A stretch of DNA of 64,000 nt from Nemertoderma westbladi (Eukaryota > Animalia > Xenacoelomorpha), in NCBI GenBank assembly GCA_032718475.1, contig JAUCBJ010006637.1:1-64000 (forward strand). The letters are read 5' to 3'. Below are positions 7,401 to 62,017 of this stretch, piece by piece. Position 1 is the first letter of the stretch; each line of letters opens with the position of its first letter. A model generated the notes under the pieces. The model worked only from the letters and a program-made list of their open reading frames with translations, ran no database searches and had not been told where the DNA came from. The position numbers and the translations under genes are program-made.

Positions 7401-10400
7401 GTATCCGGAAGTCCCATCCTGAAGTAGGCCTAACCCAAAATTAAATGCTGTAGTACCGGACGTCCCATCTTACATTACCCCGATGTCCCATCCTGTAGTA
7501 CCCGGAAGTCCCATCCTGTAGTATCCGGAAGTTCCATCCTAAAGTACCCCGATGTCCCATTCTGCAGTACCCGGAAGTCCCATCCTGAAGATCCCCAATG
7601 TCCCATCCTGCAGTACCCCGAAGTCCCATCCTGCAGTACCCCGAAGTCCCATCCTGCAGTGCCCGGAGGTCCCATCCAGAAGTACCCCAAAGTTCCATGC
7701 TACAGTACCCGGAAGTCCCATCCTGAAGTAGGCCTAACCCAAAGTACCATCCTGTAGTACCCGGAAGTTCCATCCTGAAGTACCCTGATGTCCCATCCTG
7801 CAGTACCCCGATATCCCATCCTGTAGTACCCTGAAGTCCCATCCTGAAATACGCCAAAGTTCCATCCTGCAGTACCCGGACGTCCCATCCTTAAGTACCC
7901 GGAAGTCCCATCCTACAGTACCCTGATGTCCCATCCTGCAGTACCCCGATATCCCATCCTGTAGTACCCTGAAGTCCCATCCTGAAATACGCCAAAGTTC
8001 CATCCTGCAGTACCCGGAAGTCCCATCTTACAGTACCAAGAAGTCCCATCCTGCAGTACCCCGATATCCCGTCCTGTAGTACCCTGAAGTCCCATCCTGA
8101 AGTACCCCAAAGTTCCATGCTGCAGTGCCCGGAAGTCCCATCGTGCAGTACCAAGAAGTCCCATCCTGCAGTACCCCGATGTCCCATCCTGAGGTACCCC
8201 GATGTCCCATCCTGTAGTACCCGGAAGTCCCATCATTAAGTAGGCCTAACCCAAAGTTCCATGATGCAGTACCCGGAAGTCCCATCCTGCAGTATCCCGA
8301 TGTCCCATCATGTAGTAACCGGAATTCCCATCCTGAAGTACCCCGATATCCCATCCTGTAGTACCCGGAAGTCACATCCTGAAGTACCCCGATGTCCCCT
8401 CCTGCAGTAACCGGAAGTCCCATGCAGTACATGGGAGTCACATGATGCAGTACCCTGAATCCCCATCCTGAAGTACCCCAATGTCCCATGCTGCAGTACC
8501 CTGAAGTCCCATCCTGAAGTAACCCAAAGTTCCGTGCTGCAGTACCCTGAAGTCCCATCGTGCAGTACCAAGAAGTCCCATCCTGCAGTTCCCCCGATAT
8601 CCCATCCTGTAGTACCCTAAAGTCCCATCCTGAAATACCCCAAAGTTCCATGCTGCAGTGCCCGGAAGTCCCATCGTGCAGTACCAAGAAGTCCCATCCT
8701 GCAGTACCCCGATGTCCCATCCTGTAGTACCCGGAATTCCCATCCTTAAGTAGGCCTAACCCAAAGTTCCATGCTGCAGTACCCGGAAGTCCCATCGTGC
8801 AGTTCCAAGACGTCCCATCCTGCAGTACCCCGTTATCCCATCCTGTCAGTACCATGAAGTCCCATCCTGAAGTACCCCAAAGTTACATGCTGCACTACCA
8901 AGAAGTCCCATCCTGCAGTGCCCCGATATCCCATCCTGTCAGTACCCTAAAGTCCCATCCTGAAGTACCCCAAAGTTCCATTCTGCAGTACCCGGAAGTC
9001 CCATCGTGCAGTACCAAGAAGTCCCATCCTGCAGTACCCCGATGTCCCATCCTGTAGTACACGGAAGTCCCATCCTGAAGTAGGCCTAACCCAAAGTTCC
9101 ATGCTGCAGTACCCGGAAGTCCCATCCTGCAGTATCCCGATGTCCCATCATGTAGTAACCGGAATTCCCATCCTGAAGTACCCCGATATCCCATCCTGTA
9201 GTACCCGGAGGTCCCATCCTGAAGTAGGCCTAACTAGTATCGGCATGCTGCATTGCAGCTACATTTTTAAGAATGCTGTGCCGGCTTATCGACAAAATTG
9301 CACCGCCACAACTCCCTATCACCCATGACATTTGTTAGATCATCCGCATCTTCAAGGCCAGTGTCCTTTAAGATGCGTCTCAAGAAAGTCATGGGCTGTC
9401 CACCATGGTTTATTCACTCCATGAGGCTGCCAAAGTACAAGATTATGCACTGGCTGGTCCTCACGGCGAAAGCAATGTCCTGCAAAGCGGAGGCGATTTT
9501 GTTCTAGTGTAAAGCTTGGGGGAACCAATGAGACACCTCCAATGATATATAGTGTCTGGTTGGAGATGTGTGCATTGGACTTGACACAATGAACCCGGCG
9601 TAGCATTCTTGTGAATGTGCCATCCAGAGATTTGGTGTCCTCAGCAGTTAGAGCCCAGCATGGACTCCCATAGAGGAGTACTGGAACTACTGCTGCTCTA
9701 AATAACCGGACCTTAAGTTTCCGATTAATTCTCGGTGACTTCCAAATCCTGGAAAGCCTATCAAAGGCTGCCCATGCCTTTCCCTTACGTATTCGAAGGT
9801 CCTCGCCTGACTTCCGGATCCATGATCCCAGGTAACAGAAGTCATCCACATGCTCAAGCATACCATCTTTTGAGCTTATGCTCATCCGATCAGAGACTTG
9901 CTGAGGACTTTCAAAGTTAACTGTCAAAATTTTGGTCTTTCTGGAGTTAATAAAAAGACCAACACTAGAAGCAGCATGTTCTAATGAGCTGAGGAGCCGT
10001 TGGGCTCCCTCTAGTGATTCTGAGAGTACTCCTAAGTCATCAGCAAAGTCTAGATCAGTTAGGTACTTGGCAGGATTTCCTCGACTTCTGGAGCCAGTAG
10101 GTGGAGTTATCATCACCCCATCATCATTATGATGATCTAAGAACATGCGTAGAACATAGTCAACAACAATTATGAACAAGAATGGTGCAAGTGTGTCTCC
10201 CTGGAGGACGCCCCATAACACTTCAAATGGTTCTGTGTCACCGTCAACAGTAGACACAAATGTTGTCGAGCCATCGTATACTGATCTGATTGCTGCAATA
10301 ATTTCATCAGGAATCCCATATAATGAAAGTATGCTGAACATACGTGAGCGAGAGACTGAATTCCCGTCCTGAAGTACCCCAAAGTCCCATGCTGCAGTAC

Positions 10401-10737
10401 CCGGAAGTCCCATCCTGAAGTACCCCAAAGTCCCATGCTGCAGTACCCGGAAGTCCCATAACCTACAGTACCCCGAAGTCTATGCTGCAGTACCCGGAAG
10501 TCCCATCCTGAAGTACCCGAAAGTCCCATATCCTACAGTACCCCGATGTCCCATCCTGTAGTACCCGGAAGTCACATCCTGTAGTGTTGCGGTACCCCGA
10601 AGTTCCATATTACAGTACCCGGAAGTCACATCCTGTAGTGTTGCGGTACCCCGAAGTTCCATATTACAGTACCCGGATTTTCCATTTACAGTAACCGGAT
10701 TTCCCATCCTGCAATGTCTTTTTACTCGGAAGTCCCA
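4500..10737. repeat. 23-bp tandem satellite (consensus GAAGTCCCATC(G/C)TGCAGTACC(A/C)(T/G)), interrupted by an RTE fragment
   Basis: Over two hundred head-to-tail 23-mers. Homogeneous to ~6450, then more diverged. Overlapping minus-strand ORFs with a 23-aa period are a by-product of the unit length. Confidence 0.97.
9234..10361 (-). mobile_element. 5'-truncated RTE-clade non-LTR retrotransposon (RT C-terminal half and 3' end)
   Basis: ORF 9352-10428 contains GVLQGDTLAPFLF, DLDFADDL, FCYLGS and RLRFAGHC. After a frameshift near 9405 the typical RTE tail (GQPMTF...DTGL...MGDRELWR) follows. The 3' end matches the second copy at 63885-64000. Confidence 0.9.
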
Positions 10738-17830: not shown

Positions 17831-18796
17831 TAACAACATGCCTAAGCTGTTATATTACACAACTCTTCGATATATTGATGTAGGTAGAGGAATAAACCTT
17901 CCCAATGAAATCAGCACATTCTAAAAACTTCAGTAGCCAAACTGTACGGCCAATTACCACGTTTGAAAAAAGTGCTACTTGCACTTTTGGTGCTCTTTTA
18001 GAATATATTGATAAAAAAATTTAAATTTTGCTTCTATTCTTACTTTCGATTACTAATAATGAATTCAACAAACCAAAAAAGCATATAATGGTTTCATGGT
18101 TATACCAAAGTCTTTGAAGGATGATGTATTTTGTGTAATTTTATCAATTCCGTAAGGTTCCGAAATGGTATGGGTGCCAGGAACTCCTCATATCTCGAAA
18201 ACTAATGGAGCTACAGTATTAACTTTTTATTTGTCTCATCTGAAGAGGATATAATTTTATTTAGGGACAAGTACTTTCGACACGCTAGACCTATTGTTTC
18301 AGGGGTTCTATCTAAGAAAAATAACTGGCCCAGGCCCACTAAATTTAGGGGCTTTGCAGCAGCTTGGCGGGTCGTATCTATAGTAGGTCATGTATGGACA
18401 ATGGCACCTTACATATTTTAAGACCCTATATACAGTAAGACTCACTTATGTAAACCTATCTTCCGCGCTCGCTCCTACAGCACTACAATAACAGCTTGCA
18501 TTTATTCTATTTGTTGAGTTTTCTTTTTCGTTCTTGGGGGGGGGGGGGGGGGGGGGGGGCAATTTCACTAAGAGCTGACCTTGACCTTATCTCGTCTATT
18601 TTTCCAAGAAATTTAATTATTGTATCATTTTATTAATATAGAAAAACATGTACAACATAATTTGCCTGCCAAAAATACTTTCGGGTGACCTGGTCGCAGT
18701 AATGCCCATTATTCCATTTCGTAGTAATTATTGGTCTGGCGATAAATGAAAGTGAAATATAGTCATGGGCAGAAATCTCGGCAATGTAAGAAGGCT

Positions 18797-21057
18797 ATCG
18801 GTTGTCGGCTGTCGGTTGTCTGCTGTCGGTTGTTTGCTGTCGGTTCTCTGCTGTCGGTTGTCTGCTGTCAGTTGTCTGCTGTCGGTTGCCTACTCACGGT
18901 TGCCTGCTGTTTGTTGTCTGCTGTCGGTTGTCTGCTGTCGGATATCTGTGGCGGTTGTCTGCTATCGGTTGACGGCTGTCGGTTGTCTGCTGTCGGTTGT
19001 CTGCTGTCGGTTGTCTGCTGACTGTTTTTTTTGTCGATTGTCTGCTAACTGTTTTTTTTGTCGGTTGCCTGCTGAAGCCTCGGCTGTCCGTTGTCTGCTG
19101 TCGGTTGTCTGCTCACGGTTGTCTGCTGTCGGTTGTCTGCTGTCGGTTGTCTGCTGTCGGGTGTCTGCTGTCGGTTGTCTGCTCACGGTTGCTTGCTGTC
19201 GGTTGTCTGCTGTCGGTTGTATGCTGTCGATTGTCCGCTGACGGTTGTCTGCTATCGGTTCACGGCTGTCGTTTGTCTGCTGTCGGTTGTCGGTTGTCTG
19301 CTATCGGTTATCTGCTGTCTGTTGTTTGTTGTCGGTTGTCTGCTTCGCGCGTCGGCTGTCTGTTGTCTACTGTCGGTTGTCTGCTGTCGGTTGTCTGCTG
19401 TCGGTTGTCTGCTGACGGCTGTCGGTTGTCTGCTGTCGGTTGTCTGCTGACGGCTGTAAGTTGTCTGCTGTCGGTTGTCTGCTGTCGGTTGTCTGCTCAC
19501 GGTTGTCTGCTGACGGTTGTCTGCTATCGGTTGACGGCTGTCGGTTGTCTGCTGTCGGTTGTCTGCTGTCGGTTGCCTGCTGATTGTTTTTTGTTGTCGG
19601 TTGTCTGCTGCGCCCCGGCTGTCCGTTGTCTGCTGTCGGTTGTCTGCTCACGGTTATCTGCTGTCGGTTGTCTGCTGTCGGTTCTCTGTTGTCGGTTGTT
19701 TGCTGTCGGGTGTCTGCTGTCGATTGTCTGCTGACGGTTGTCTGCTATCGGTTGACGGCTGTCGGTAGTCTGCTGTCGGTTATCGGTTGTCTACTATCGG
19801 TTGTCTGCTGTCTGTTGTTTGTTGTCGGTTGTCTGCTTCGCGCGTCGGCTGTCTGTTGTCTACTGTCGGTTGTCTGCTGTCGGTTGTCTGCTGACGGCTG
19901 TCGGTTGTCTGCTGTCGGTTGTCTGCTGACGGCTGTCGGTTGTCTGCTGACGGTTGTCGGTTGTCTGCTGTCGGTTGTCTGCTGTCGGTTGTCTGCTCAC
20001 GGTTGTCTGCTGACGGTTGTCTGCTATCGGTTGACGGCTGTCGGTTGTCTGCTGTCGGTTGTCTGCTGTCGGTTGCCTGCTGATTGTTTTTTGTTGTCGG
20101 TTGTCTGCTGCGCCTCGGCTGTCCTTTGTCTGCTGTCGGTTGTCTGCTCACGGTTGTCTGCTGTCGGTTGTCTGCTGTCGGTTCTCTGTTGTCGGTTGTT
20201 TGCTGTCGGGTGTCTGCTGTCGATTGTCTGCTGACGGTTGTCTGCTATCGGTTGACGGCTGTCGGTTGTCTGCTGTCGGTTGTCGGTTGTCTGCTATCGG
20301 TTGTCTGATATCTGTTGTTTGTTGTCGGTTGTCTGCTGCGCGTCGGCTGTCTGTTGTCTGCTGTCGGTTGACTGCAGTGAGTTGTCTGCTCACGGTTGTC
20401 TACTGTCGGTTGACTGCTGTCGGTTGTCTGCTGTCGGTTGTCTGCTTTCGGCTGTCAGTTGTCTGCTGTCGGTTGTATGCTGTCGGTCGTCTGCTGTCGG
20501 TTGTCTGCTCACGGTTGTCTGCTGACGGTTGTCTGCTATCGGTTGACGGCTTTCGGTTGTCTGCTGTCGGTTGTCTGCTGTCGGTTGTCTGCTGTCGGTT
20601 GTCTGCTGATTGTTTTTGTTGTCGGTTGCCTGTTGCGCCTCGGCTGTCCGTTGTCTGATGTCGGTTGTCTGCTCACGGTTGTCTGCTGTCGGTTGTCTGA
20701 TGTCGGTTCTCTGTTGTCGGTTGTCTGCTGTCGGGTGTCTGCTGTCGGTTGTCTGCTCACGGTTGCTTGCTGTCGGTTGTCTGCTGTCGGTTGTCTGCTG
20801 TCGGTTGTCTGCTTTCGATTGTCTGCTGACGGTTGTCTGCTATCGGTTGATAGCTGTCGGTTGTCTGCTGTCGGTTGTCGGTTGTCTGCTGTCGGTTGTC
20901 TGCTGTCGGTTGTCTGCTGTCGGTTGTCTGTTGTCGGTTGTCTGCTGTCGGTTGTCTGCTCACGGTTGTCTGCTGCCGGTTGACGGCTGTCGGTTTTCTG
21001 CTGTCGGTTGTCTGCTGTCGGCTGTCTGCTGTCAGTTGGCGGCTGTCGGTTGCCTGC
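18797..21057. repeat. 14-bp tandem satellite (GTCGGTTGTCTGCT)n with 7-bp substructure
   Basis: Tandem units with variants (CTCACGGTT, CTGACGGCT). Ends abruptly at the TGT of the BEL-A LTR. Confidence 0.97.
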
Positions 21058-22275
21058 TGTAAAAGCCTTTGCTGAATTGCCCCGTTATTTTTATTATCTT
21101 TTACATTAAAATACTCTGTAGTTGATTTAATAAGTGTAAGAGACCGTATTATTGCTGTATCGGTGTTTTTAGAGGATCTAAGACCTATTTCCTCCGTATG
21201 TGTACTGTGAAAGGCATATTTTATGATTCTATGGCAATTCGTGACGCAAAGGGGTGATAGCTACTCTTGAACAGTAGTTACTATGACTACGGTTAACAGC
21301 TGACATTCATACGTGTTGATTTCCTTTGTTCTACGGCGTCTCTCAGTTCAGTCAGCCAATTAGAGCGTTTTTGTGGCTCCTTGTACAGAAAATTTCCGAG
21401 AAATGACGCAATGCCTATGTGCAGTGTTTACATTCAGTCCTGAGCCAAAGAAAGAACGGCTTGGAAGTATTTTGTGCTTTACTGTTTTTAGTCTTACACT
21501 AGTAGGTTTAATTACAAGGACATATATCCTTTAACTGCTGACTGATCATACATGCTGACTGCTGAAACATTGCAAACTCATAACAATCAGTGTTTTCATT
21601 GTTGTTTTATACTGCTATTTACCGTCAGTTCTTCATAATATGGTTGATGAATTATTATATTTGGAATAACGATAAATAACCCCGAAACCCAATATTCTTG
21701 ATATACCGAAGGTAAGAGAGAAGGGTTACAGATAAACGATTGTGACTTATGTTAAAGTGGTTTGAAGTGAATCTAATGTTATTTGATAGACCCTACATGA
21801 GTCAGTCTGTGTTCCTTTTATATGTGACTAAAATCAGTGAAGATTGGCAGATTAGTGTGCAGTATTGTGCAGCATTGTGTATGAGTGAGTCTGTTAAAGA
21901 AGCAATTCCTAAAGAATGCGCCATATATGTGAATTATAATTAAGCCATATCGTTGTGAGTAGTTTAAGTCATAACTCTGTTTATATAGATAAAGCGCCAC
22001 GTCCTAAAGGAACTGTTAATATTACCGAAGGTGAATAATATTGTCAGAGATTATATAGTACTGTCAGTCGAATAATACATTAGGCTTACATAGCAATAAA
22101 ATTAAACCGTCGAACCCAATCTCCCGGGAATATCCAGCGGGTGAATGATCGCGCACAGATTGGTTTCGACTAGTGTAGTGAATCAAATACTTGTCATAGA
22201 CTAAAAACCGATTTAATATCTAGAAGACATCTTAATTTGGTGGGTTAAACTGCCAAAGGTCTGAAAGCGCGAACA
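21058..22275 (+). repeat. BEL-A 5' LTR
   Basis: TGTAAAAGCC...GCGCGAACA. About 8 substitutions versus the 3' LTR, counted by eye. Confidence 0.96.
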
Positions 22276-22289
22276 TTAAAGGATATATG
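22276..22289 (+). promoter_or_regulatory. BEL-A primer-binding site, self-complementary type
   Basis: TTAAAGGATATATG abuts the LTR, has no TGG, and is the exact reverse complement of 21521-21534 (CATATATCCTTTAA). Confidence 0.75.
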
Positions 22290-22619
22290 CTTCTTTGTTG
22301 CAGTAAGCAATAAAGTTGAAAGTACCGGTCAACCGGTAAACCTGAACCGGTACATCTGTAGGTCAGTAGTCAGTAGGCCCAACCGCTAGAACCGGTACTT
22401 CTGTATTCCGTAGGCCTAGCTGTCCTAACCCGTACTTCCGTATAAGTACACTAGTATTATTCGATTTGATTGTTGTATACCGGTAGGTCTTAGTACTTAA
22501 TCAGGGAACGGCCGCCCTGATTTTTTATTGAGATTTTACTTATTTCTGTCAAGTTTTATTTATTTGTAGGACAGTATTGAACAGAAGGCGTGTAAGCCTG
22601 ATCAGATTGTACAGACGAT

Positions 22620-23195
22620 TTGTAGGCTGAGCTGTTGTCTGATTGCTGTTAAGTCCGAACGAATTGCAGTGTGTGTAGATCACCTGTCCGATTAAGTACG
22701 ATTAGGCAGTAGGGGCAGCGAACGCTGTAAGGTAAACCCCCAACTAAAGAATAAGTCGCACTACTGGGTTAGAGCGCATACTCCCTAATCATTTCGGAGT
22801 CTGCATGTCCTGTAGTTTATTTAGGCTTGAGAGTAGTCTGCCATCGTTTAGTCTGTACTTTGTTTGTATAAGTCTGTACGGGTAGCGTATAATTTATTTA
22901 GATAATTCGTAGGCTGGATAGTTGTCTGGCTGTTATTAGGTCTGAACGGATTGCCGCGTATGTAGATCATCTGTCCGATTAAGTACGGTTAGGCAGTAGG
23001 GGCAGCGAACGCTGTAAGGTAAACCCCCAACTAAAGAATAAGTCGCACTACTGGGTTAGAGCGCATACTCCCTAATCATTTCGGAGTCTGCATATACCGT
23101 AGTTTGTTTAGGCTTGATAGTAGTCTGTCAGTGTTCGGTCTGTATTTTGTTTGAGTAGTTTGTACGCGTAGCGTAATATTTATTATTCAGAGTTT
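22620..23195 (+). repeat. ~290-bp tandem duplication in the BEL 5' leader
   Basis: GTAGGCTG...TAAGGTAAACCCCCAACTAAAGAATAAGTCGCACTACT...GGAGTCTGCAT occurs twice. The same duplication is in BEL-C (~55170-55569 plus 60421-60600). Confidence 0.85.
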
Positions 23196-24504
23196 ATGCG
23201 ATTATCCGCAACATTCATTCCCCAAGTTTGTTCCTACAGTAATTGTGTTTGTTATACATACCGCTATAGTTAAATTAACCCCGGTACTACACGGGCTGCT
23301 CGGGGTAGGTAAAGACTGGTGATTTTGTGCATCGGTCACTCCAGCAGATGCCGTGGTTCTTTTAGCTGTTCAAGTATATTTAACTACTGATTATTTGTTG
23401 TACAAGTACTCGTACCTAATTTAGGGTTTAGTGTACAGTGCTTTCCGAAAGTAATTAGTGTAGGCATTATATTTGTGTTGTAAAGTGGTTAATAGGCACA
23501 TTCGATTAGCTCTATTAACTTCTAGGTAGGAACACTCCGTGATACATAACGTAGAACCTATAGCGATACGGCTATAGGTCGTCAGGCGGTGGTATTTTCC
23601 TATCTAGACAACGCAGTGTATTTACTACTACTTATTATTTCAAATACCGTAGTACCCTGTCCGTGTAATAACCAGTTTTCTAACCCTTTGTTAGGCTGGT
23701 TTGTAGACTTCTTGTAAAATTACCCTAAAAATTCGTATTTTGTGTTTTTTTTTGTAAATTTTTGTGTTTATTTAGAGATTGTAATCTCAACCCGAATTGT
23801 ACGTAATTTGTAGTATTAAGTAACTTAGGTAAATTAGAATTATTTGTTTTAGTGTCCTATACGTAACACTTCACTAAAAGCGCACCGCTTTGTGTAGTGA
23901 TTACCCCAGAAATAATAACATTTATTTCAAACATTGACTAAACCCATTAAAACGGGTATAAATATATTATAAATCAAATCTAACGATTTATAAATAGTAG
24001 GCCTACCATATAACAATTAGGTCTCAATATCAGTTGGACTACTGCTTAAATAACGGTAATAAAGTAAGTTAAAGTAACCAAATAACCCTAAAGTTCAGAA
24101 ATTCAATTATTCCAAAATAATTGATATACCGGTATTTACGATAGGCCTATTATCTTATTTCTATAAATCTAGGCTGAAATTATACCGGTACTCGTAATTA
24201 ATTCTATTCCAGAATTATATATACTACAAACTGTAATCTGTATACCGGTATTCCGATAGGCCTATTATATATTTATATATATTTGTGCTAAAATTATACC
24301 GGTATTCTGTGATAAACCTAGTCTGTAATAATACTTATATAGCTATATATACTAGAAGTATACCGGTATTATAATATATTATATATCACGCTACACTGAG
24401 TAGCAGTAACGGTAATTAATTACTAGGCTAGCAGTTAATACTGAGTTACTAGACTTGCTCAGACTGTAATACAGCAGTAGGCATTCAACGGTACATACCT
24501 AGTC

Positions 24505-27500
24505 ATGTCTGATACTAAGCAGAACCTGTCAGACAGTTTATTAGATGTAACTATCTGCGACTCAGATAGAGACGTACAACCGTCTGGTCGTAAATCCAGT
24601 TCACCTCCCACTGTGAGGAAGGTCATCCCTCCAGTAGTAATAACAGAACCTAGGCTGGTCCAACATCGTAGGTCTATCATAGGCACCCGAGCTCAGGTCA
24701 AGCGGGACCAAGAAGCAGCGGAACAGCAACAACCCGCGAGTCAAGAGCTTGTTACTCAGCGGCCCAGCAGCTCCAGTAGTGAAGATACTGTAGAGCTGAC
24801 ACCCGAGCGCGGAGCAGAGATGACGGATGCTGTTTATACGGATCCCCTTCTCATCCTTCCTGCAGCCGTACTCGCTGGGTTATTGATCGCGGTGGAAGAA
24901 CACCAGATCGATTGGGCGAGAAGTCAACGGTCAACTAGAGATAGTTACGCGGGATACACGAGTGAAGAACTGAAGTCTATTGTCGAGTCGCAATGGAACT
25001 TCCCCGGACCCGGACTCCCGTTTGATTTATCAGAAGCTGCCTGGGAAGACATACACCGGATGGGAGTAGCCAAGGAAACCATCGATCCAGCTGTATGGAA
25101 GAGGTCCGCAGCCGGATACGCCCAGGGATTCTTCAGCTCTATGGAGCGAGTAGAGAGACAACTGTTTCAACAACCTCAAGGACCTCAAGAGCAGGGACAG
25201 CTGCTTTATCAAGTTAGAGAAAGAGTTCTGCGGATTAGGCTAATCTTATCCGCCTTTGAGGAGGCTTCTAAAAGAAAACAAGACACGTCGTTGCAAGTTG
25301 CCGTAAAGACTTGGTTTCAACGGGTGAGTCGCCAGGTTCAAGGAGCAGCTCAGTGGAAAGCTCAGTTGGAGGAGCGCTCAACCCATGGAGAATCAACAGA
25401 CGCTACTTTTTCCCAAGTGGAAAGTGAAGCGACGGCAGAGAAACCGCATAAGAAGGATGCCATTGACATCTATCTGTCAGACTATCAGCGTTTTTTAGGA
25501 GATGACGAGTTGAGGAGAAGGCTGGAGGGACTTAGCCCTAACAGCGAAGGAGCCAAACTTGTGTTAGATGCAATTGATGTGGATAGGTTAGCGGCGAACC
25601 AAGCTAAATTCGATGAACAACTCCGCATCGCCAAGGTTCAAGAAGAACAAGTAAAGAAAAAACGTATAGAAGATAGAAAGACAGCAGCAGCGGCAGTGGC
25701 AGCGGCAGAAGCGGAACGAAAGGCAGCAGAGGCAGCGGCAGAGGCAAAGGCGGCAGCTGCGGAAAGGAAAGCGGCAGCGGCAGAAGCGGAAAGAAAGATA
25801 GCAGTGGCAGAAGCAGAACGGAGGGCATCTGAAGAGACAACCCAACTAGAGTTGGAAAATCTTCAAGAGAGGCAAGATAACTTTAATAAACAGTTAACAG
25901 CTAGTAATATGCAGATGATGAATCGATCTACTCCCAAACGACAAGGTTATACATCATCTGAGGAAGGCGATACCACCGACACTGACGGCGGAGGAAATCG
26001 ATCTCGTCTAAGCAGACGTAAAAGAACATTCCACCGTCAGAAATTGCCTGATTTGCCTCCAGCTGTTAGAAGGCAACTAAATAACACCAACTTAGGTAGT
26101 ACAGAACCCACAGACCAAATAATTAAAATAGAAAGACTCCCTACTATAGTAGATGAGCCTGAAATAATTAGGCCTGTTCTTGAAATCACCCCTTCAGTGA
26201 TAGATACACCTGTGCTCCCTGAAACTACTTCTAAATTCCCTCTGCATAGCACTAAGCTACCTGTGCCCCGTAGAACTGCCCAAGAGACAGTTCAGGTCCT
26301 GGACCCCGAGCGAAATATTCCAAATTTGTCGCCCGTTGTCCCTCGTCCGCCCGCTACGACGTTGGCGGATCCCGTTTCGGCGGTTGATTGGGTAGACGAG
26401 AGACGGCGGGGGATGGATATCCTGCTCGGGCAGATGCAGGAGACTGTCCTGCAATTCAAGGGCACAGTAAGGGAAAGTAGGCTGGAGTTGCAAGAAGTGC
26501 AGCAAAGTATCGCGCTTGAACGCGATAAATTAGTAAATACCCAAAAGGGTATACCACCACCCTCTGTAACAATGTGTCAACCTGTTAGGTCTGAAGTATC
26601 TCATGCGCAAGGTGTGGAGCCTACACGCATCTATACTGCTAGCGAAGTAGAAACTCCTATAGTGAACCCTATTAAGGGTAATTATAGACCTGTTGATAGT
26701 GATATTCCCTATAGACCGGATCATAATCCGAGAAATTTATATACCGATAACTCGATATTAAATAGCACGATGGCCCAAGAAAGTTTTACGCGTCAAATGG
26801 CTAGAACCGAAGCCCGGCAAGCGGTAAAGGTTGGAGAGATCGTCAAGTTCAATGGAGATGAGATGAAATGGTTACCTTTTAATGAATATTACAAAGATAA
26901 CATACAGAACTCTGTACTATCTAATGGAGAAAAACTTAGATACCTCATCGAGTGCTTGGAAGGATCTCCCAAGTTAATGGCGTTAAAGTTTATTGGACAT
27001 CCAGACGGATTAAGACAAGTTTGGGATACACTAAACATCAGGTATGGTAATAGGAATAATATCGCTGGGTACTTGTATGCAAAGTTAGTAGCACCCCGAA
27101 AGTTTATTAGTAGCGGAATTATCGAGTTTTCCGATGAGATCCAGGAGATCTGCAGACAATTAGATTGGCTAGGTAAGTCTCATGAGTATCAGAACACTAT
27201 GGTTATTAGAGCAGTGGCTTCTACTTTACCTAAAGGTGGAGTAGGTACACGCTGGGATAAGAAAGTGTTATATATGATGGAACAACAACGGCGAGACCCT
27301 ACCATGGCTGATCTCATGTCATTCCTAGATGGAGAAGTGAAATTACAGCTCCTGAAACAGTCTAGGGAGAAAACACCGGAAAACAAGGTAAGTGAAAAAC
27401 CCGTCTCTAGGAGAAAAATAACACCAGTATGTTATACCGATGACGGCGAAAGCCAGACTTCTCAAGGAGAAGATAGCGGGAAGGACACGGATAGATCTTA

Positions 27501-30500
27501 TTACGTGAATAAAATGCCTAAAGATCAGGTAAGTAAATTTAAGTCTCGAACAAATGACAGGAGGGAACAGGTAAGAAAAACTCCTCCCACGTCTCCCAAG
27601 AGAATTCAGGTGAGAAAACCCGAAGAAAGGGCAAGTGTACACAACGTGACTCAGAATAAGGTAAGTAACATCAAACCAAAATGTGCGCTGTGTGACGGGA
27701 CCCACTATTTGAATAGGTGTGATGAATTTCTAAAGAAATCATTAACGGAGAGACGCGAAGTTATGTGGGATAAGCGGTTATGTTATAATTGCCTCAGACA
27801 AGGACACCAACGGCGTACCTGTTTCTCGGACATAAGATGTGCAAAGTGTGGTGCGAAACATCATATCTTGTTGCACGCTGAATTCGATCGAAATAGTCCG
27901 AATCAGGTAAGTGATTCCGAGTTACATGTCCAATTCAGTGATGTGAACGACACTGATCAATCTGAGATGGAAGGATTCTATACAGATGAGTTCTCCGACG
28001 AAAACGAATCCTGTTACATGATAAATACCGCAGTGTATCGAGCACTCACATATGAAAAGGATCCAGACAACGACTTTACTCTAACTACTTCTGAGCGACA
28101 ACCATCTTGGAAAGAGCCATCTTCAAATGTAGGGATCCGAGAGTTTCCTGTGGTGCAGGTGAGGGTTCACGGACCTAAGAGGAGTTATGTAGTGAACGCC
28201 CTCCTCGACTCCGGTAGTACAGGAACATTCATCGACAAAGAGCTAGCCGAAGATATATTTGCTGGACAACTCAAGTTCCAAACTAAGCTCAACATGTCTG
28301 GCATAATGCAAGTTTGGAAATCTACAATAACAGCTGATTATTATGTAGGCGCGTTGTCCACCCCACAAGACGAACTAGGAGAACACAGCATAAGGTCAGT
28401 GAAAATGGTGGCTATAAAGAACTTCGCTACTACTCAAGCAGACCTTTATAATTGGGACGAGGATGAGAGCATCCAACATCTTAACATACCTCGATTCCAG
28501 ACTGATTATCCTGGAGTGCAAATACTCATCGGCCAAAACGCGCATGAGGCGCTGGAGACATTAGAGAAACGGCCTGCTCAACCGCAGCCACTACAGACCT
28601 ATGCGGTAAGAACTAGAGTAGGTTGGTACTTTACTGGCCCTTCCCGTAGAACACTCAGAGAAAGACTACCGCAAGAGAGCGTATGCCAGGTGAGTGAATG
28701 GGAAGATGATACCAGTGAGGGAGACAACTCAACTGAGGGAATTCCATACTCCTCAGATAACGACGATGTTCACCAGCTTTTTGATGAGGAGAATACCATC
28801 GATCTCCTTAAGGAAAACGAGGCTTGGCAAAACCAAGTGAACTTATGTCAACTTCTCTATCCATCGGAACGAGAAGCTTATAACGACGAGTTAAATGACG
28901 TCATTGAGCGTCATAATGCCAAGATTCGGGATGAACATGCTGTACGATTCTTTACGCAAGAGGCGGTAGAGCCCAATTCCTACGATAAAGCCTTGTCGGT
29001 GGAAGAGGAAAGGGCCAAGCAGATCCAAGAGACAACTACATGTTTCCTCAAAGATCAAGGTAGGTATGAAGTCGGTTTACCTTTCCGCAAGAAAGAACCG
29101 AAGTTCATCAATAACAGACCTTTGGCGGAAAAAAGAATCGCGCAACTCCATCGACGCCTTACGGCTAATTCTTCAGCGAAAGCCATGTATCAAACACAGC
29201 TAGAAAAATTTATTAATAAGGGATACGCGGAGAGAGTACCGGAAGAAACACCTGTGACTGAAAGAACGTATTATTTAACTCACCATTACGTTCCTAAACC
29301 CGGTAAACCACACGAAGTGAGAGTAGTGTTTGACGGCTCCGCTCTCTACATGGGTCAATCCCTTAACTCTGAATTGTTACCCGGACCCAACTTGCTTCAA
29401 TCTTTGTTGGGAATTCTTTTAAGATTGAGACAATATTCGATTGCTTTCGCCTCCGATATAGAAGGCATGTTCTTACAAGTCAAGGTGTTAGATAGGGATC
29501 GAGATAGTCTACGATTTCTGTGGTGGCCCGAAGGAGACCTCAACCAGAAACCGGTGGAGTACTGGATGACCATCCAGGCCTTTGGGATAATCTCAAGCCC
29601 TTCCAACGCCTGTTCGGTAGTGCCTACTACTGCAGAGGACAATAGAGAGGCCTTCTCTAAGGAAGTGATCGACAACATCAAGAGAGACATATACATGGAC
29701 GACAATCTGAAGTCCCTTCCATCAGTTGAGGAAGCCATTGAGGTCGCTAAGGGAACGGTAGAGTGCTTAAAAAGAGGTGGATTTCGATTAACCAAATTCA
29801 CCAGCAACTCCCGTGAGTTTCTGGAGTCGATTCCTGCGGAAGATCGCGGAGCGAAAGATCTTGATTTGATCAAAGATGATCTGCCAGAAACCAAGACACT
29901 CGGCTTGAAATGGGACACAGAGAGAGATATCCTGTTTTTCCAACTAAAACAGCGAGATAATCCTGTTCGAACCAAACGGATTTGCTTAAGTATACTGAGC
30001 ACTTATTTCGATCCATTGGGATTTATTAGCCCAGTTATATTGATTGCTCGAAGTTTGGTACAACAAATGTGGCTTGAAAACCACTCATGGGACGATCCAC
30101 TTAAGGGTGAATTACTGAAGCAGTGGATGAAATGGGAAGATTCTCTACCGGCTATCGAGGAGTTTATAATTTCCCGTTCATATTTTGGTCATGTTCTCCC
30201 TACGTATTCCTATCAACTCCATGTGTTTGGAGACGCCAGCGATATGGGAATCGGTATAGTAGCCTACCTAAGAGTGGAAACTCCGGATGGAATCAAAGTC
30301 GCCTTGGTTACTTCTAAGGCATTAATCAACAACAAGTTGAAAGTTCCTCGAGCGGAGTTAAAAGCGGCTCTATACGCTACAGCCATCGGCCGGAATGTAA
30401 CCGAACAGATTGACTATACGTTAGAGAAAACTGTCTATTGGACCGACGCTTTACTCGTGTTAGAGTATATAACCAATGAAGTCTGTCAGTTCAGCGTCTT

Positions 30501-32577
30501 CGTTACCAACAGGGTAGCCATCATACTTAGTCGCACGACGATGGACCAATGGAGACATTGCCCCGGAACGATTAATCCAGCGGACATCGCGTCCCGAGGA
30601 GCGACTCCAAAGGAATTGGTAAATACTCCCGAATGGTTAGGTGGACCCGACTTTCTCTACCGAGAAGAAGAAGAATGGCCACCCCATCTCACAACAGCAG
30701 AGATCAGACAGGCCAAGGGAGCGGAGAAAGTTAAACCCAAAACTCGAGCGAGTAAATCGAAGTTGTTTAAACCTGCGGTTGATCTATCTGTATTATTTAC
30801 TTCCGGAGATGATGCTTTGGATCAGAAACCCACCGCCACGACGAAAGAAGTCATGGAAATCCGTGACAAGGATTTGAAATCTGGAATACCAGATATCTCG
30901 CAAGGACTCTCACCTCTCTTGCAGAGAGCGATACGTCACTACAGTTCCTGGAATCGGCTCTGTAAGGCTGTTACCTATTTGAAACGATGTTTTCATCATC
31001 GTTACTCCGGAACAAAGACCAATAGCGATGACGCTCCATCAACATCTGCACGAGTCCATGTTATTAAAGATATTCCTAAATACAAGATACCCGACAGGTT
31101 TCTAAAGGAGAAGATCAGCTACCAGGAGCATGATGAAACCAACAAACAGATGCTGAGACTCCTACAATGCTATGAGGATTCCGATAAGTATTTCCTGTTG
31201 TTAAGAAATCCACAGATGCGCTTAAGGGATCGCTTCTCTAGTACCATGATAGATGGGTTAATACGTGTTGGAGGTAGATTAACAAACGCCCCATTATCCT
31301 TTGACACTAAGTTTCCCATACTCATTAGAAATCTTGATATACAAATCAAGATGATTGTAGATGTTCATAGCAAACTGTACCATGCTGGTAGAGAACGAGT
31401 TCTGAGCGAAATTCGAACTCGCTACTATTTTTATAAACCCCGTAGGGCTCTGAACCAAGTTCTTAGGAATTGTATACCCTGTAGGAAAGCATTCAGTAGG
31501 CCTTTAACGCAGCGAGAGGCAGAATTACCTAGGGAAAGAGTAAGCTTCTATGAACCACCCTTTACTAATACCGGTGTGGATTTATTTGGCCCTATTGAAG
31601 TATATCGTGCCCGGACTATAGTCAAGAGATGGTGTGTCATCTTCGTTTGTATGACTTGTAGAGCTATCCATCTCGATATGGTAAACGATCTATCCACCAA
31701 CAGCTTCGTGTTGAGTTTACGACGACAGATCGCTCGCTTCGGAACCAGTAACACGATGAGATCGGATAAGGGAACGAACTTCATTGGCGCCAACAACGAA
31801 ATTCAAGCTTATGTAAAGGACTGGAATAAAAGACAGGTGGACGATCAGCTAAGGATAACAGCGTCTAGCTGGACCTTCAACGCCGCCGACGCCCCTTGGT
31901 GGGGAGGAAGTTGGGAGAGGTTGATTAGGAGCGTGAAGACTGCGTTCCACTTTATTGTGCCTTGTCGCGCTTATCTCACCGACGAACTATTGCGGACGTT
32001 AATGGAGGAAATCGCCGCCTATCTCAACGAAAGACCGCTTATGCCAGTCTCTTCAAATCCTGATTCCCTGGAAGCGCTAACACCCGCGCACTTCCTACTG
32101 AAGAAACCCGTAGCCATGCTCCCGCAATCGGAGATCACAGACGGAGACGAGTACTGCCGTCGAACCTGGCAACTTATGCAGTTGCTATCCCGTCGTTTCG
32201 CTGACCATTTCGAGAAACATTACCTGCCCACTCTACAACTTCGAACTAAGTGGTTTGCGCAGCAAGAAAACGTCAGCGCTGGAGACATGGTGCTTATTGT
32301 GGACCCCGATCTCCCACGTAAGCGATGGCAAACAGGACGTATCATCGAGACTTATATCTCGAGCAATGGTTTGGTGTGATCAGTAGAGCTCGTCGTCATG
32401 CGGCGGAACTTTAAGAAACCAGGGATAGTCTTTGAGACTCAACAGCTCAATCGCCCAGTGGGACGTTTATGTTTACTGGAAAGAGACAGAGAGCTCTCCG
32501 GAAACTATGGAAGGCAAGAAACTCTTCCCACGACCACTTCCCTAATCCAACCGACATCTAGGGACTCCCCAACTTAA
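24505..32577 (+). CDS. BEL/Pao Gag-Pol polyprotein (one in-frame TGA at 32377-32379 near the C-terminus)
   Basis: DUF1759-like Gag (KFNGD...W..F...EKLRYL), three Zn knuckles (CALC..H..C, CYNC....H....C, CAKC...HH.LLH), protease LLDSGST, RT (VVFDGS, SDIEGMFLQV, YMDD), RNase H (HVFGDAS, PRAEL, YWTD), integrase (HAG..CIPC, DLFGP, SDKGTNF, WERLI). The frame continues 65 codons past the TGA to TAA 32575-32577. Confidence 0.95.
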
Positions 32578-33122
32578 TATCGTTCGGAGTGGGCGTGTGA
32601 CTCTATTATTTTATATTATTTTATCATCTTTATATTTATGTATGGATTACTATGTAATTTTATTATAATCGTTTTATTTAATTTAGTAGAATATTATTTA
32701 GCGATTATTTTGTAGAATAGTGCAATATATTCGTGTTTATTACGTACATACTTACTTATATTATATTTAGTGCGACGGCGAAGAAATAATTATTTTTTCT
32801 CTTTCCTTACTGTCCGTATTATATTATAAATACGTAACTACAGTAAGATGAAATGTCTGTACTTATTAAAGTACAATAAAGCCACTACTATATTTAAGTA
32901 TTATTGGTAGGCAGAGTATTAGGAATGCAAAGTTCAGATCCTCGTGTCTCGGCTAAACCAAGCTCTGGGTAGACCTTGGAAACGACTTGCCTCTTCACAC
33001 TGACATTGCTTCGTGCGATATTGCTCTCATACCGTATATTAAATAATACATATAGTAGCGTGATGTCCCTTTAACAGTAGCGTATAACGCAAAATAAATC
33101 TGTTAAACCCTTTGACCATCTG

Positions 33123-33415
33123 TAATTCTAGTCGATTAAGATATCGCGGCACCCACCGATATACTTGAAAGACAAATTCTAGAATCAGTGGTTAACGTCC
33201 CCAGACAAGTTCTGGAATAAATCGGTGCCCATCTCAAATATTAATTAATTAATATTTGCAAAATCTAATAAATCAAAATCTGTAAAATTCAGATCCTTTA
33301 ATAATTCTAGTCAATTAAGATATCGTAGTATTTACCGATATTTTTAAAAAGACAATTGTCATAGAATTAAGGATCTTGTGTCCCCAGACATGTTCTGGAA
33401 TCCAAATATGTCCAT
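33123..33415 (+). other. Duplicated ~180-nt-period hairpin-forming module in the BEL 3' non-coding region
   Basis: ATTCTAG...AAGATATCG / CGATATACTT...CTAGAAT long stem plus CCAGA...TCTGG stem, present twice and retained in BEL-B and BEL-C. Confidence 0.55.
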
Positions 33416-34230
33416 TTAATTATCAAATAATAAAATTTCAGGGAATCAATTTAAATTCATGCCTTTTAATGAATTTAATAAATTGCCATTTTTACGCAAT
33501 TTATAAAGTTCCCAAAATTCCATTAATTAATAGATCAAGGGAGCGGAGATTTATCTTATCATGCGTATGAGTGTGTGAAAGTCTCCCAAACATAGTCAAT
33601 AGCCGATAAAATTCATAAAGTCATGTATAAAACAGAACATTGACTATTAAAGAATTACTATTAAATAACATCCCAGATCTGTATGCATTGGAATCACCCT
33701 AATTCTACCGCTAGCTTTGCATAATGTCACCATAGCAACAACCACGCTAGAATTAGAATTGAGTTAAAAGAACAATAGAAAGCTTGTCCCATTGAATAGC
33801 ATAGGGAATACATAGTGCACTGATAGTATCCAAGGATACATAATAATACAGTGACATTCTGGAAGGCATTGACTAACGGACAAGTGACCCGAGTGTGTGT
33901 AATTTGTGACAAGTTGTGTGTGTGGTATTTGTGAGTTTATAGGTGAATGTTACTGCTAAGGTGTGTTTACAGTAGCTAGTCGCAATCGTAAAAGTAACCT
34001 AACTCTCCAAGGAAACCTGAAGTACATCTAAGCCTTTGGGACGGACAGTTGAGTGACTTGTGCCGGTTGTCGTTGTCGTTGTGCGGCTACGTCGTTGGCG
34101 AAAGTACAGCGGCGACGACACATCGGCGCTGAGGATCTCGTACTGTCCGGGGTTGATTGGGGTAGGCAGCGACGCCCGCTCGCCTAAATATAAACTCATT
34201 ATAATATGGATAAACTCATATATAGCAGAT

Positions 34231-35357: not shown

Positions 35358-35376
35358 ACTGAAAATCCCATTTTCT

Positions 35377-35384
35377 GGGAGCGG
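35377..35384 (+). promoter_or_regulatory. Polypurine tract
   Basis: GGGAGCGG directly before the 3' LTR; identical in BEL-C (CCGCTCCC at 45734-45741 on +). Confidence 0.75.
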
Positions 35385-36602
35385 TGTAAAAGCCTTTGCT
35401 GAATTGCCCCGTTATTTTTATTATCTTTTACATTAAAATACTCTGTAGTTGATTTAATAAGTGTAAGAGACCGTATTATTGCTGTATCGGTGTTTTTAGA
35501 GGATCTAAGACCTATTTCCTCCGTATGTGTACTGTGAAAGGCATATTTTATGATTCTATGGCAATTCGTGACGCAAAGGGGTGATAGCTACTCTTGAACA
35601 GTAGTTACTATGACTACGGTTAACAGCTGACATTCATACGTGTTGATTTCCTTTGTTCTAAGGCGTCTCTCAGTTCAGTCAGCCAATTAGAGCGTTTTTG
35701 TGGCTCCTTGTACAGAAAATTTCCGAGAAATGATGCAATGCCTATGTGCAGTGTTTACATTCAGTCCTGAGCCAAAGAAAGAACGGCTTGGAAGTATTTT
35801 GTGCTTTACTGTTTTTAGTCTTACACTAGTAGGTTTAATTACAAGGACATATATCCTTTAACTGCTGACTGATCATACATGCTGACTGCTGAAACATTGC
35901 AAACTCATAACAATCAGTGTTTTCATTGTTGTTTTATACTGCTATTTACCGTCAGTTCTTCATAATATGGTTGATGAATTATTATATTTGGAATAACGAT
36001 AAATAACCCCGAAACCCAACATTCTTGATATACCGAAGGTAAGAGAGAAGGGTTACAGATAAACGATTGTGACTTATGTTAAAGTGGTTTGAAGTGAATC
36101 TAATGTTATTTGATAGACCCTACATGAGTCAGTCTGTGTCCCTTTTATATGTGATTAAAATCAGTGAAGATTGGCAGATTAGTGTGCAGTATTGTGCAGC
36201 ATTGTGTATGAGTGAGTCTGTTAAAGAAGCAATTCCTAAAGAATGCGCCATATATGTGAATTATAATTAAGCCATATCGTTGTGAGTAGTTTAAGTCATA
36301 ACTCTGTTTATATAGATAAAGCGCCACGTCCTAAAGGAACTGTTAATATTACCGAAGGTGAATAATATTGTCAGAGATTATATAGTACTGTCAGTCGAAT
36401 AATACATTAGGCTTACATAGCAATAAAATTAAACCGTCGAACCCAATCTCCCGGGAATCTCCAGCGGGTGAATGGTCGCGCACGGATTGGTTTCGACTAG
36501 TGTAGTGAATCAAATACTTGTCATAGACTAAAAACCGATTTAATATCTAGAAGACATCTTAATTTGGTGGGTTAAACTGCCAAAGGTCTGAAAGCGCGAA
36601 CA
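35385..36602 (+). repeat. BEL-A 3' LTR
   Basis: 1218-bp direct repeat of 21058-22275. Confidence 0.96.
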
Positions 36603-42600: not shown

Positions 42601-44157
42601 GGCTTCTACTGCTGCAGCTGCCGCCTTTCTTTCGGCTTCTACTGCTGCAGCTGCCGCTTTTGCCTCTGCCGCTGCCGCTTTTACCTCTGCCGCTGCCTCT
42701 GCCGCTTCTCTATCCACTTCTGCCGCTTTTCGTTCCGCTTCTGCCGCTGCTACTGCTGCTTTCTTTCTGTCTTCTATGCGTTTTTTCTTCACCCTTTCTT
42801 CTTGGTCTCTAGCGATGCGGAGTTGTTCATCGAATTTAGCTTGGTTCGCCGCTAACCTATCCACATCAATTGCGTCCAACACACGCTGGGCTCCTTCACT
42901 ATTAGGGCTAAGTCCATCTAGCCTTCTCCTCAACTCTTCGTCTCCCAAAAAACGCTGATAGTCTGACAGATAGATGTCAATGGCATCCTTCTTATGCGGT
43001 TTCTCTGCCGTCGCTTCACTTTCCACTTGGGAAAAAGTAGCGTCTGTTGATTCTCCATGGGTTGAGCGCTCCTCCAGCTGAGCTTTCCACTGAGCTGTTC
43101 CTTGAACCTGGCGACTCACCCGTTGAAACCAAGTCTTTACGGCAACTTGCAACGACGTGTCTTGTCTTCTTTTAGAAGCCTCTTCAAAGGCTGATAATAT
43201 TAGCCTGATTCGCAGAATTCTTTCTCTAACTTGATAAAGCAGTTGTCCCTGCTCTTGAGGTCCGGTCTTCAGGTTATGACTTAAACTAGACACAACGAAA
43301 AGGCTATAGATTCACGTATATGGCGCATTCTTTAGGAGATGCTTTGTTATCAGTTACAATCATACACAATGCTGCACAATACTGCACACTAATCTGCCGA
43401 CCTTCACTGAATTTAGTCACGCATAAAGAGAGCAACAGACAATTTATGTTGGGCATATGAAATAGCATTAGATTCACTTCAAACCACTCAACATAGGTCG
43501 CAATCGTTTATCTGTAACCGGTCTCTCTAACCTTTAGTATATCAAGAAGGTGGGGTGTCTGACTATTGATCAGTATTCCAAATATAATCTTCCATCAACA
43601 AATATAATGAATAACCGACAGCAAAAGCAGTAATGTAAGATATGAATTGCATAGATATGTATGATAAGATTGCTCGTTTGTGTAAATCGTTTGGTTAGTA
43701 TGATAACAGATATACGTTCTATAATTAAGCCTACTAATGTAAAGCTAAAGAATGCTGATATACGGAGGTGCCAAAAGCCGATGTTCTTAGGCTCTGGGCA
43801 AAAACATAACACTGAACTACTGAGTTCTGTATACACCTCCAACACAGAGACAAAAACGCTCTGATTGGTCAACCGAACAACGAGAGAACAAAGAAACAAA
43901 GAAACGTCGACGTGGCAATATCAGCTGTTAGCCATCGTCATGGTAGCGACACTGTTTTCAAGAGTATCCAGCTTATCGCGTCACGAGATTGCGGATTATG
44001 TCCTCTAAAGTACAAATACAGTACAAATACAGAAGAAATGACTTTTATGTCCTCTAAAACACCAGTACAGCAAGGACACGGCCTTTTTATGCCTGGCAAA
44101 CCAACTACAGAGTACTTTAAGGGAAAATAACCGGTTAATGACGCAAAAGCTTTTACA
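36603..44157 (-). mobile_element. BEL/Pao derivative (BEL-B), truncated and internally deleted
   Basis: Partial 5' LTR (~43272-44157, TGTAAAAG start on -) fused directly to gag. Contains gag-PR, small pol remnants and the 3' region, and is cut at the BEL-A LTR inside the accessory ORF. Confidence 0.92.
38887..43263 (-). pseudogene. BEL-B Gag-protease-remnant ORF (N-terminally deleted; in-frame TAA at 40063-40065)
   Basis: ORFs 40063-43293 and 38887-40011 are in one frame, separated by GAA>TAA (FIDK*LAED). RT and most of RH/IN are deleted in frame. Confidence 0.88.
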
Positions 44158-44595: not shown

Positions 44596-45733
44596 TGTTC
44601 GCGCTTTCAGACCTTTAGCAGTTTAACCTGCCAAATTAGGATGTCTTCTAGATAATAGATAGTCTTTAGCCTACGACAAATATTTGATACACTACATTAG
44701 CCGAAACCAGTCTATGCGCGATCATTCACCCGCTGGATATACCCGGGAGACTGGATTCGGAAGCCTAATCGTATTGCGGGATAGGCCTACTGTATTATTC
44801 GACTGATCTTAATATATATAATCTCTGACAAATATTATTCACTTTCGGGAAATATTAACAGTTCCTTTAGGACGTGGCGCTCTAAATATATAAACAGAGT
44901 TATGACTTAAACCAGACGCAACGGGATGGCTATAGATTCACGTATATGGCGCATTCTTTAGGAGATGCTTCGTTATCAATCACAATCATACACAATGCTG
45001 CACAATGCTGCGCACCAATCTGCCGACCTTCACTAATTTTAGTCACATACAAAGAGAATAACAGACAATACATGTAGGGCCTATAAAATAGCATTAGATT
45101 CACTTCAAACCACTTAATGTAAGTCGCAATCGTTATATGTATCCGGTCTCTCTAACCTTTAGTATATCAAGAAGATTGGGGTGTCTGATTGTTTATCAGT
45201 ATTCCAAATATAATATTTCATCAACAAATATAATGAATAACCGACAGCAAAGCAGTAATGTTAAGGTATGAATGATTATGAGTGACTGAGATAACGGATA
45301 TACGTTCTATAATTAAGCCTACTAATGTTGATGCTAAAGACTGAAACACGGAGGTTCCACGCCGGTGTTGTAGGCTGTGGAAGAAATCACATACTGACTC
45401 ACTTCCCTAGATTCTATATACCATCTCCAACACAGAGGCAAAAAACGCTCTGATTGGTCGACCGAACAAAGAGAGAACAAAGAACAAAGAGATGTTCTAC
45501 GTGGCAATATCAGCTGTTAGCCGTCGTCATGGTATCTACACTGTTTCAAGAGGATCCGGCTTATTGCGTCATAGAATTGCTAATCATGTCCGCTAAAGTA
45601 CACATACGAAGAAATGGCTTTTATGTCCTCTAAAACAACAATACAGTAAGGACACGGCCTTTTATGCCGGTTAAACCAACTACAGAGTACTTTACGGGGA
45701 AAATAACCGGCTAATTACGCAAAAGCCTTTACA
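44596..45733 (-). repeat. BEL-C 3' LTR
   Basis: 1138 bp. About 5 substitutions and 1 indel versus 60879-62017; clearly diverged from the BEL-A LTR. Confidence 0.96.
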
Positions 45734-60867: not shown

Positions 60868-60878
60868 ATATCCGTTAT
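60868..60878 (-). promoter_or_regulatory. BEL-C primer-binding site, self-complementary type
   Basis: Element-sense ATAACGGATAT abuts the LTR and is the exact reverse complement of the element-sense LTR sequence at 61574-61584. Confidence 0.75.
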
Positions 60879-62017
60879 TGTTCGCGCTTTCAGACCTTTA
60901 GCAGTTTAACCTGCCAAATTAGGATGTCTTCTAGAAAATAGATAGTCTTTAGCCTACGACAAATATTTGATACACTACATTAGCCGAAACCAGTCTATGC
61001 GCGATCATTCACCCGCTGGATATACCCGGGAGACTGGATTCGGAAGCCTAATCGTATTGCGGGATAGGCCTACTGTATTATTCGACTGATCTTAATATAT
61101 AGAATCTCTGACAAATATTATTCACTTTCGGGAAATATTAACAGTTCCTTTAGGACGTGGCGCTCTAAATATATAAACAGAGTTATGACTTAAACCAGAC
61201 GCAACGGGATGGCTATAGATTCACGTATATGGCGCATTCTTTAGGAGATGCTTCGTTATCAATCACAATCATACACAATGCTGCACAATGCTGCGCACCA
61301 ATCTGCCGACCTTCACTAATTTTAGTCACATACAAAGAGAATAACAGACAATACATGTAGGGCCTATAAAATAGCATTAGATTCACTTCAAACCACTTAA
61401 TGTAAGTCGCAATCGTTATATGTATCCGGTCTCTCTAACCTTTAGTATATCAAGAAGATTGGGGTGTCTGATTGTTTATCAGTATTCCAAATATAATATT
61501 TCATCAACAAATATAATGAATAACCGACAGCAAAGCAGTAATGTTAAGGTATGAATGATTATGAGTGACTGAGATAACGGATATACGTTCTATAATTAAG
61601 CCTACTAATGTTGATGCTAAAGACTGAAACACGGAGGTTCCACGCCGGTGTTGTAGGCTGTGGAAGAAATCACATACTGACTCACTTCCCTAGTTTCTAT
61701 ATACCATCTCCAACACAGAGGCAAAAAACGCTCTGATTGGTCGACCGAACAAAGAGAGAACAAAGAACAAAGAGATGTTCTATGTGGCAATATCAGCTGT
61801 TAGCCGTCGTCATGGTATCTACACTGTTTCAAGAGGATCCGGCTTATTGCGTCATAGAATTGCTAATCATGTCCGCTAAAGTACACATACAGAAGAAATG
61901 GCTTTTATGTCTTCTAAAACAACAATACAGTAAGGACACGGCCTTTTATGCCGGTTAAACCAACTACAGAGTACTTTACGGGGAAAATAACCGGCTAATT
62001 ACGCAAAAGCCTTTACA
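60879..62017 (-). repeat. BEL-C 5' LTR
   Basis: 1139-bp repeat of 44596-45733, TG...CA on the minus strand. Confidence 0.96.

Follow-up and report, generated by a model that had tools for sequence, protein, structure and literature searches.

A primer-binding site complementary to its own LTR in BEL/Pao retrotransposons of Nemertoderma westbladi and distant relatives: a sequence signature of candidate tRNA-independent self-priming

Known self-priming systems and the elements of the window

Self-priming of reverse transcription is described, in the available parts of the relevant papers, for the Tf1/sushi group, Tcn1, Tj1 and the Copia TAR lineage (PMC6317226, PMC7175516, PMC4600332, PMC6934838, PMC2864245, PMC5443660, PMC3601003, PMC11042837). 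According to the accessible passages on Tf1/Tf2, Tj1, the Tf1/sushi group and the plant element Tcn1, about 11 nt by the 5' LTR complement the element's own LTR RNA, and cleavage by RNase H in Tf1 falls between bases 11 and 12 (PMC7175516, PMC4600332, PMC6317226). For BEL/Pao elements, the ICTV profile of the Belpaoviridae gives an 18-nt primer-binding site (PBS) for tRNA-Arg or tRNA-Gly and a length of 4.2-10 kb (PMC8742986). Neither self-priming nor a splice-built primer was found reported for BEL/Pao in the literature searched, which lies outside Repbase Reports, GyDB and most subscription journals, so that a prior note in one of these is possible. PBS and priming terms do not occur in the available parts of PMC554778, PMC3118150, PMC6238403 and PMC12440569, and those of PMC8220671 and PMC9094657 hold only general passages on the topic.

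The window analysed here is a 64,000-nt stretch of a contig from N. westbladi (JAUCBJ010006637.1). It carries three related elements, A, B and C, of which A has the following layout.

21058..22275, plus strand: 5' LTR of element A, 1218 nt, TG...CA ends
24481..32379, plus strand: gag-pol open reading frame of A, single frame, 2632 aa
35365..35384, plus strand: purine-rich tract before the 3' LTR, identical 20 nt in A and C
35385..36602, plus strand: 3' LTR of A, differing from the 5' LTR at 8 of 1218 nt (99.3% identity)

The preliminary description had assigned this family to BEL/Pao, and the assignment is borne out by the Pfam domain set (DUF1759, Peptidase_A17, Integrase_H2C2 and DUF5641), by the BEL/Pao order of gag, protease, RT, RNase H and integrase, and by homologues carrying PF05380; the protease and RT motifs were identified by eye in the translation. 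PF05380 is present in all of the at least 120 homologues listed, the best being at most 44% identical to A, and the named sources among these matches are cnidarians, echinoderms, hemichordates, amphioxus, molluscs, nemerteans and fish. Like the elements of the ICTV profile (PMC8742986), A has LTRs, a single gag-pol frame, the same domain order and a purine tract; unlike them, it has no 18-nt tRNA PBS and, at 15,545 bp (21058-36602), exceeds the stated length range. Because its proteins are BEL/Pao and the departure from the profile concerns priming, A is filed as a variant of the Belpaoviridae.

The leader of A is 2.2 kb long and includes a 287-nt tandem duplication, and the 3 kb downstream of pol hold no open reading frame of at least 110 aa and no visible env-like frame. 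A target-site duplication (TSD) is absent around A (21057/36603), unlike the 5-bp TSD of C. The left edge of A adjoins a 14-nt satellite and its right edge the middle of the 3' region of B, which together with the missing TSD points to a deletion, to recombination among copies or to a join made in assembly. Elsewhere in the window, satellites form long arrays of 23-nt and 14-nt units (4511-9226 and 18794-21060) and a LINE fragment lies at 9352-10479. The 64 kb contain no tRNA gene, and Rfam gave no match within 21058-23200.

60879..62017, minus strand: 5' LTR of element C (1139 nt), in agreement with A in 841 of 1131 aligned columns
44596..45733, minus strand: 3' LTR of C
43273..44157, minus strand: LTR part of element B, the only part of one LTR left

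The ends of C are set by its 5-bp TSD; its pol is broken and its leader is interrupted by a LINE (55745-60156, plus strand), which runs in the opposite orientation and has two open reading frames, the second with endonuclease and RT. The deletion in B extends into gag and has removed U5 and the PBS.

22276..22289, plus strand: PBS of A, 14 nt, beginning at the first base past the LTR, without TGG
21521..21534, plus strand: partner of A, LTR nt 464-477, exact complement of the PBS
60868..60878, minus strand: PBS of C, 11 nt, without TGG
61574..61584, minus strand: partner of C, LTR nt 434-444, homologous to the partner of A
43703..43713, minus strand: partner of B, one base different from that of C
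21496..21520, plus strand: conserved block upstream of the partner, A/C identity 20/24

With the LTR end of A placed at 22275 by comparison with the 3' LTR, the 14-nt reverse complement that had been noted between 22276-22289 and 21521-21534 proves exact, and the duplex ends at the LTR end. The reported lack of a tRNA-type PBS was likewise confirmed, as no TGG occurs within 100 nt past the LTR of A or C. C retains an 11-nt duplex through two compensatory changes, at PBS positions 1 and 5, which fall at homologous columns as originally claimed: the LTR alignment has no gap within the two partners, and nine of the 11 pairs are common to both. The geometry also agrees with the priming that had been proposed, the 3' end of the partner pointing to the LTR end at the first base after its CA. 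In B, whose own PBS is lost, the changed partner base would pair as G-U if set against a PBS of the C type. A and C resemble Tf1/sushi, as portrayed in the available parts of the sources, in that the PBS complements the element's own LTR, adjoins the LTR end and is not of the tRNA type; unlike those Ty3/gypsy chromoviruses, A encodes proteins of another superfamily, BEL/Pao. The five starting letters of the C PBS (60874-60878, minus strand) equal those of the Tf1 PBS in the portion of PMC11042837 available, and the PBS of A differs; the likeness is probably a coincidence.

In dinucleotide shuffles of the LTR, the observed length was reached in 0 of 20,000 trials for A and in 26 of 20,000 for C, with Markov expectations of 1.5e-5 and 1.1e-3, respectively; these values are not independent because A and C are related. 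Compared over some 13,000 positions inside A, the complement to the LTR is longest at the PBS start and is equalled nowhere else. Two matched changes with no unmatched one have a probability of 4-6e-4 under a simple model. The partner and the 25 nt preceding it are 31/38 identical between A and C, compared with about 50% in the flanks (41/83 upstream, 15/30 downstream).

Contiguous and split partners in distant relatives

Relatives of A were fetched from metagenome and genome collections with a profile spanning RT to integrase, giving 97 loci. The main test covered the 16 loci whose LTR end is set by two LTR copies; the other 81 lay outside it, either with the LTR end not set or, in the case of L031, L033 and L096, as further members of a family already present. 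RT identity to A is 40-46% in the 15 of the 16 relatives that were compared. Two of the 16 have a TGG site, 2 nt (L076) and 5 nt (L023) past the LTR, and there the complement reaches only 4 nt; in L073 the TGG lies 6 nt from the LTR end. By contrast, 13 of the 14 relatives lacking TGG carry a complement of 10-13 nt that starts 0-4 nt past the LTR, so that complement and TGG are mutually exclusive (Fisher p 0.025). This complement takes two forms. In three relatives (L046, L050 and L061) it is contiguous and 10-12 nt long, and in ten it is 10-13 nt long and split by a GT..AG intron within the LTR. The remaining relative, L084, gives 8 nt under the strict test and, by eye, 11 nt with one mismatch across the junction. 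The partners of A and C are contiguous, i.e., not of the GT..AG-split form; an intron upstream of the partner of A (acceptor-like AG at 21490-21491) was considered and rejected, since A, B and C share no conserved donor. The ten split relatives differ in this respect from Tf1/sushi as described in the accessible passages, and from the plant Ty1/copia elements of the Copia TAR group, for which the part of PMC6317226 available does not mention a splice-built primer.

The split pattern was spotted by eye and then tested on the same elements, and contiguous-only searches of the relatives had been mostly negative before the split form was permitted. Several controls bear on it. In the 13 relatives, shuffled PBS reached equal length in 0-4 of 100 cases per element and internal pseudo-PBS in 0-2 of 60, and a 10-nt complement arose in 18 of the 306 combinations of swapped PBS and LTR, four of these within families. 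When all 256 dinucleotide pairs were tried as junctions in the ten split elements plus L084, GT..AG succeeded in 10 of 11 elements, the next best pair in 3 of 11, and 142 pairs in none. The search demanded GT alone, and eight of the ten split elements have GT(A/G)AG donors, versus 25 of the 643 GT sites in their LTRs. These ten elements amount to about eight families (RT identity is 69% for L002/L009 and 90% for L082/L083). Between L082 and L083 two bases before the donor differ and the PBS differ to match, i.e., there is covariation across the junction, and L046 and L050 show covariation between PBS and contiguous partner.

Secondary evidence comes from a looser scan over another 47 loci with unfixed LTR ends. 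A complement of at least 11 nt was found in 24 of them, of which 16 follow the same pattern (14 split, two contiguous) at the inferred LTR end; the other eight were judged to be chance or unsure. L007 has a contiguous 10-nt match at its inferred LTR end, and L073 the TGG site. The PBS of most self-complementary relatives (L002-L090) begins with GT; the primer predicted from this ends in AC, and a C often comes next. A and C deviate from this GT start and retain the next C. A 29-nt LTR-end pattern had no matches in metagenome contigs, and no relative was found in viral contigs. Seventeen contigs of prokaryote assemblies (L081-L097) encode animal-type BEL/Pao elements and are most likely host contamination.

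A quick RT/RNase H tree of 114 rows, unrooted and with five loci of short RT cover dropped, places the three labelled TGG rows and L073 on one side of a branch with support 99, so that the TGG-type relatives L023, L035, L073 and L076 group apart; on the opposite side, split and contiguous forms are interleaved. The contiguous label requires six changes for seven rows, which fits repeated intron loss or gain in either direction. The branch of A is long (1.2) and lies close to the boundary of the TGG and self-complementary groups, and the placement of A is unsure. The preliminary description had suggested that self-priming arose in the lineage of the window; this is not upheld, as the signature spans a wide BEL/Pao group, mostly in the spliced form, in a tree that is unrooted. 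Taken as a statement about sequence, the signature of tRNA-independent self-priming in BEL/Pao is real and well controlled, and the window represents its contiguous form.

Predicted folds, variants and alternative readings

RNA folding and splice-site inspection yielded four further features around the PBS and its partner.

22236..22257, plus strand: predicted U5 hairpin, retained in C with other pairs
22293..22315, plus strand: predicted leader hairpin directly after the PBS, AATAAA in its 3' arm
21709..21717, plus strand: donor-like site downstream of the partner (GT at 21712); B and C have a similar one
ending at 22569, plus strand: strong acceptor-like site in the leader, kept in C

A splice from 21712 to 22569, if used, would remove the PBS and yield an mRNA without reverse transcription from it. 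A stem joining U5 and leader, seen by eye, was rejected because folding gave two separate hairpins instead. In Tf1 a U5 stem-loop reportedly stands beside the PBS duplex; a candidate counterpart in A and C is the hairpin predicted at 22236-22257. The duplex of PBS and partner is predicted with a probability of 0.8-1.0 for RNAs starting no more than about 40 nt from the partner. The Inr-like word at about 21431, previously put forward, is present in A and is not conserved in B or C, and a start there lowers the duplex probability of A to 0.04. For C, starts about 56-60 nt upstream give 0.0 to 0.8, depending on the 3' end chosen, and among spliced relatives the duplex reaches at least 0.8 in five of eight with a 20-nt first exon and is often near 0 with longer exons. 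Folding is thus weak evidence for the duplex, because A fails further upstream and both C and the spliced relatives are sensitive to the ends chosen.

Contigs of four runs (X1-X4) from four studies were aligned to the LTR of A with an 80% identity cut; X1 may share its source with the window. Among the rows listed, the partner of A has no substitution, and the single one around it is 21515 C>T, which makes up 85% of the contig depth in each of X1 and X3. Seven of the 23 rows listed for loose ends (of 37) start just behind the partner, at 21533-21546, and none in 21521-21532, so that subfamilies diverge directly after it. Among 40 of 123 rows listed, a variant at PBS position 5 (22280 A>C) reaches 34% in X1 and 30% in X3; the matching partner variant expected at 21530 is not listed, which tells against priming in cis; a C-type sequence agrees there in 49 of 65 columns, under the 80% cut, and may thus have escaped the listing. 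A common variant in U5, 22241 T>C, converts a U-G pair of the hairpin into C-G. No GT..AG joint was found in the contigs of X4, a run whose nature as RNA is a guess, so that this result is uninformative on expression.

The substitution at 21515 leads to the best-surviving alternative, in which the primer would act in trans: a separate short LTR transcript, or the 3' LTR portion of an RNA, would prime a genomic RNA that itself starts downstream of the partner or is unspliced. In this common variant a TATA-like word (21513-21518) is created, finishing 3 nt before the partner; as a promoter it would place the RNA start about 30 nt later, downstream of the partner. The corresponding word in B and C is weak. 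An intron would also survive in progeny LTRs more easily if the spliced RNA were a separate molecule, and a polyA-like signal follows the partner within 1-94 nt in seven of the eight split elements examined. Against this, AATAAA is absent from the LTRs of C and B, the duplex is predicted to span 740 nt in cis for an RNA that begins close to the partner, and the known case of Tf1 acts in cis according to the available part of PMC7175516. Priming in trans is considered rather unlikely.

Distinctly less probable is a purely structural role, in which the pairing would serve packaging, translation control or dimer formation and something else would prime. The further hairpins predicted to flank the PBS are compatible with such a role. 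It would leave unexplained why the 3' end of the partner always falls 0-4 nt from the LTR end, the place a tRNA end takes in the TGG relatives, and why the complement and TGG exclude each other while no other primer site is visible.

Binding of the PBS to a host tRNA half or fragment, with an incidental match to the LTR, appears very improbable. The PBS of some relatives resemble the tRNA T-loop motif, a point for such binding. Priming by half-tRNAs is known in Copia lineages, as stated in the available part of PMC6317226. However, the PBS of A and C differ at two of 11 positions, those of the relatives vary by family, each fits its own LTR and rarely another's, and matches across GT..AG junctions are not explained by a tRNA. 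Lastly, the pairing could be argued, from the C 11-mer alone (p about 1e-3) and the kinship of A and C, to be an inverted repeat that arose by chance in AT-rich DNA and came down from a single ancestor. This may be practically dismissed in view of the shuffles, the matched changes and the finding that the signature recurs across distant families.

Proposed mechanism and significance

Judged from the sequences, with the distant relatives lending strong support, self-priming in some form is highly probable. The specific version in which the element's own LTR RNA would serve in cis as primer in place of a tRNA is moderately probable. In this proposal, transcription of A would start upstream of 21521, and the RNA would fold back such that the PBS pairs with the partner in its own LTR. 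The RNase H of the element would then cut just after the partner (21534 in A), by analogy with Tf1, and the freed RNA end would prime synthesis that sets out at the base next to the CA of the LTR and copies U5. The 5' part lost in this way could be regained from the 3' LTR after strand transfer. As the PBS would be re-copied from the primer, PBS and partner would stay matched while drifting. In the split elements, the complement would exist only after splicing and so would have to act as RNA; moreover, the split partner spans the end of the first exon, and thus the primer need not consist of the first bases of the transcript. For these elements, the intron would have to persist in whichever RNA copy serves as template for the new LTR.

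If true, this scheme would make the ICTV statement of host tRNA priming in the Belpaoviridae (PMC8742986) wrong for many families, and self-priming would occur in all three LTR superfamilies. A comparable case outside the gypsy group exists in Copia TAR (Houba and Osr-1), for which self-priming was likewise predicted from sequence, as given in the available part of PMC6317226. The finding would also account for tRNA-based annotation detecting no PBS in such elements, and it touches the question, raised in the accessible portion of PMC3601003, of which is older, self-priming or priming by tRNA. Each element offers a base-exact prediction. As a further consequence, a splice-built primer may spare these elements any dependence on the supply of tRNAs and let them escape silencing by tRNA fragments.

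More broadly, it appears fairly likely that a large branch of animal BEL/Pao elements would do without tRNA priming and use a primer of its own LTR RNA, mostly assembled by the spliceosome, with the elements of the window as the intron-free form. A splice-built primer would, if true, tie reverse transcription to host splicing: replication would be gated by splicing and would require that one LTR copy lose an intron which the other copy retains.
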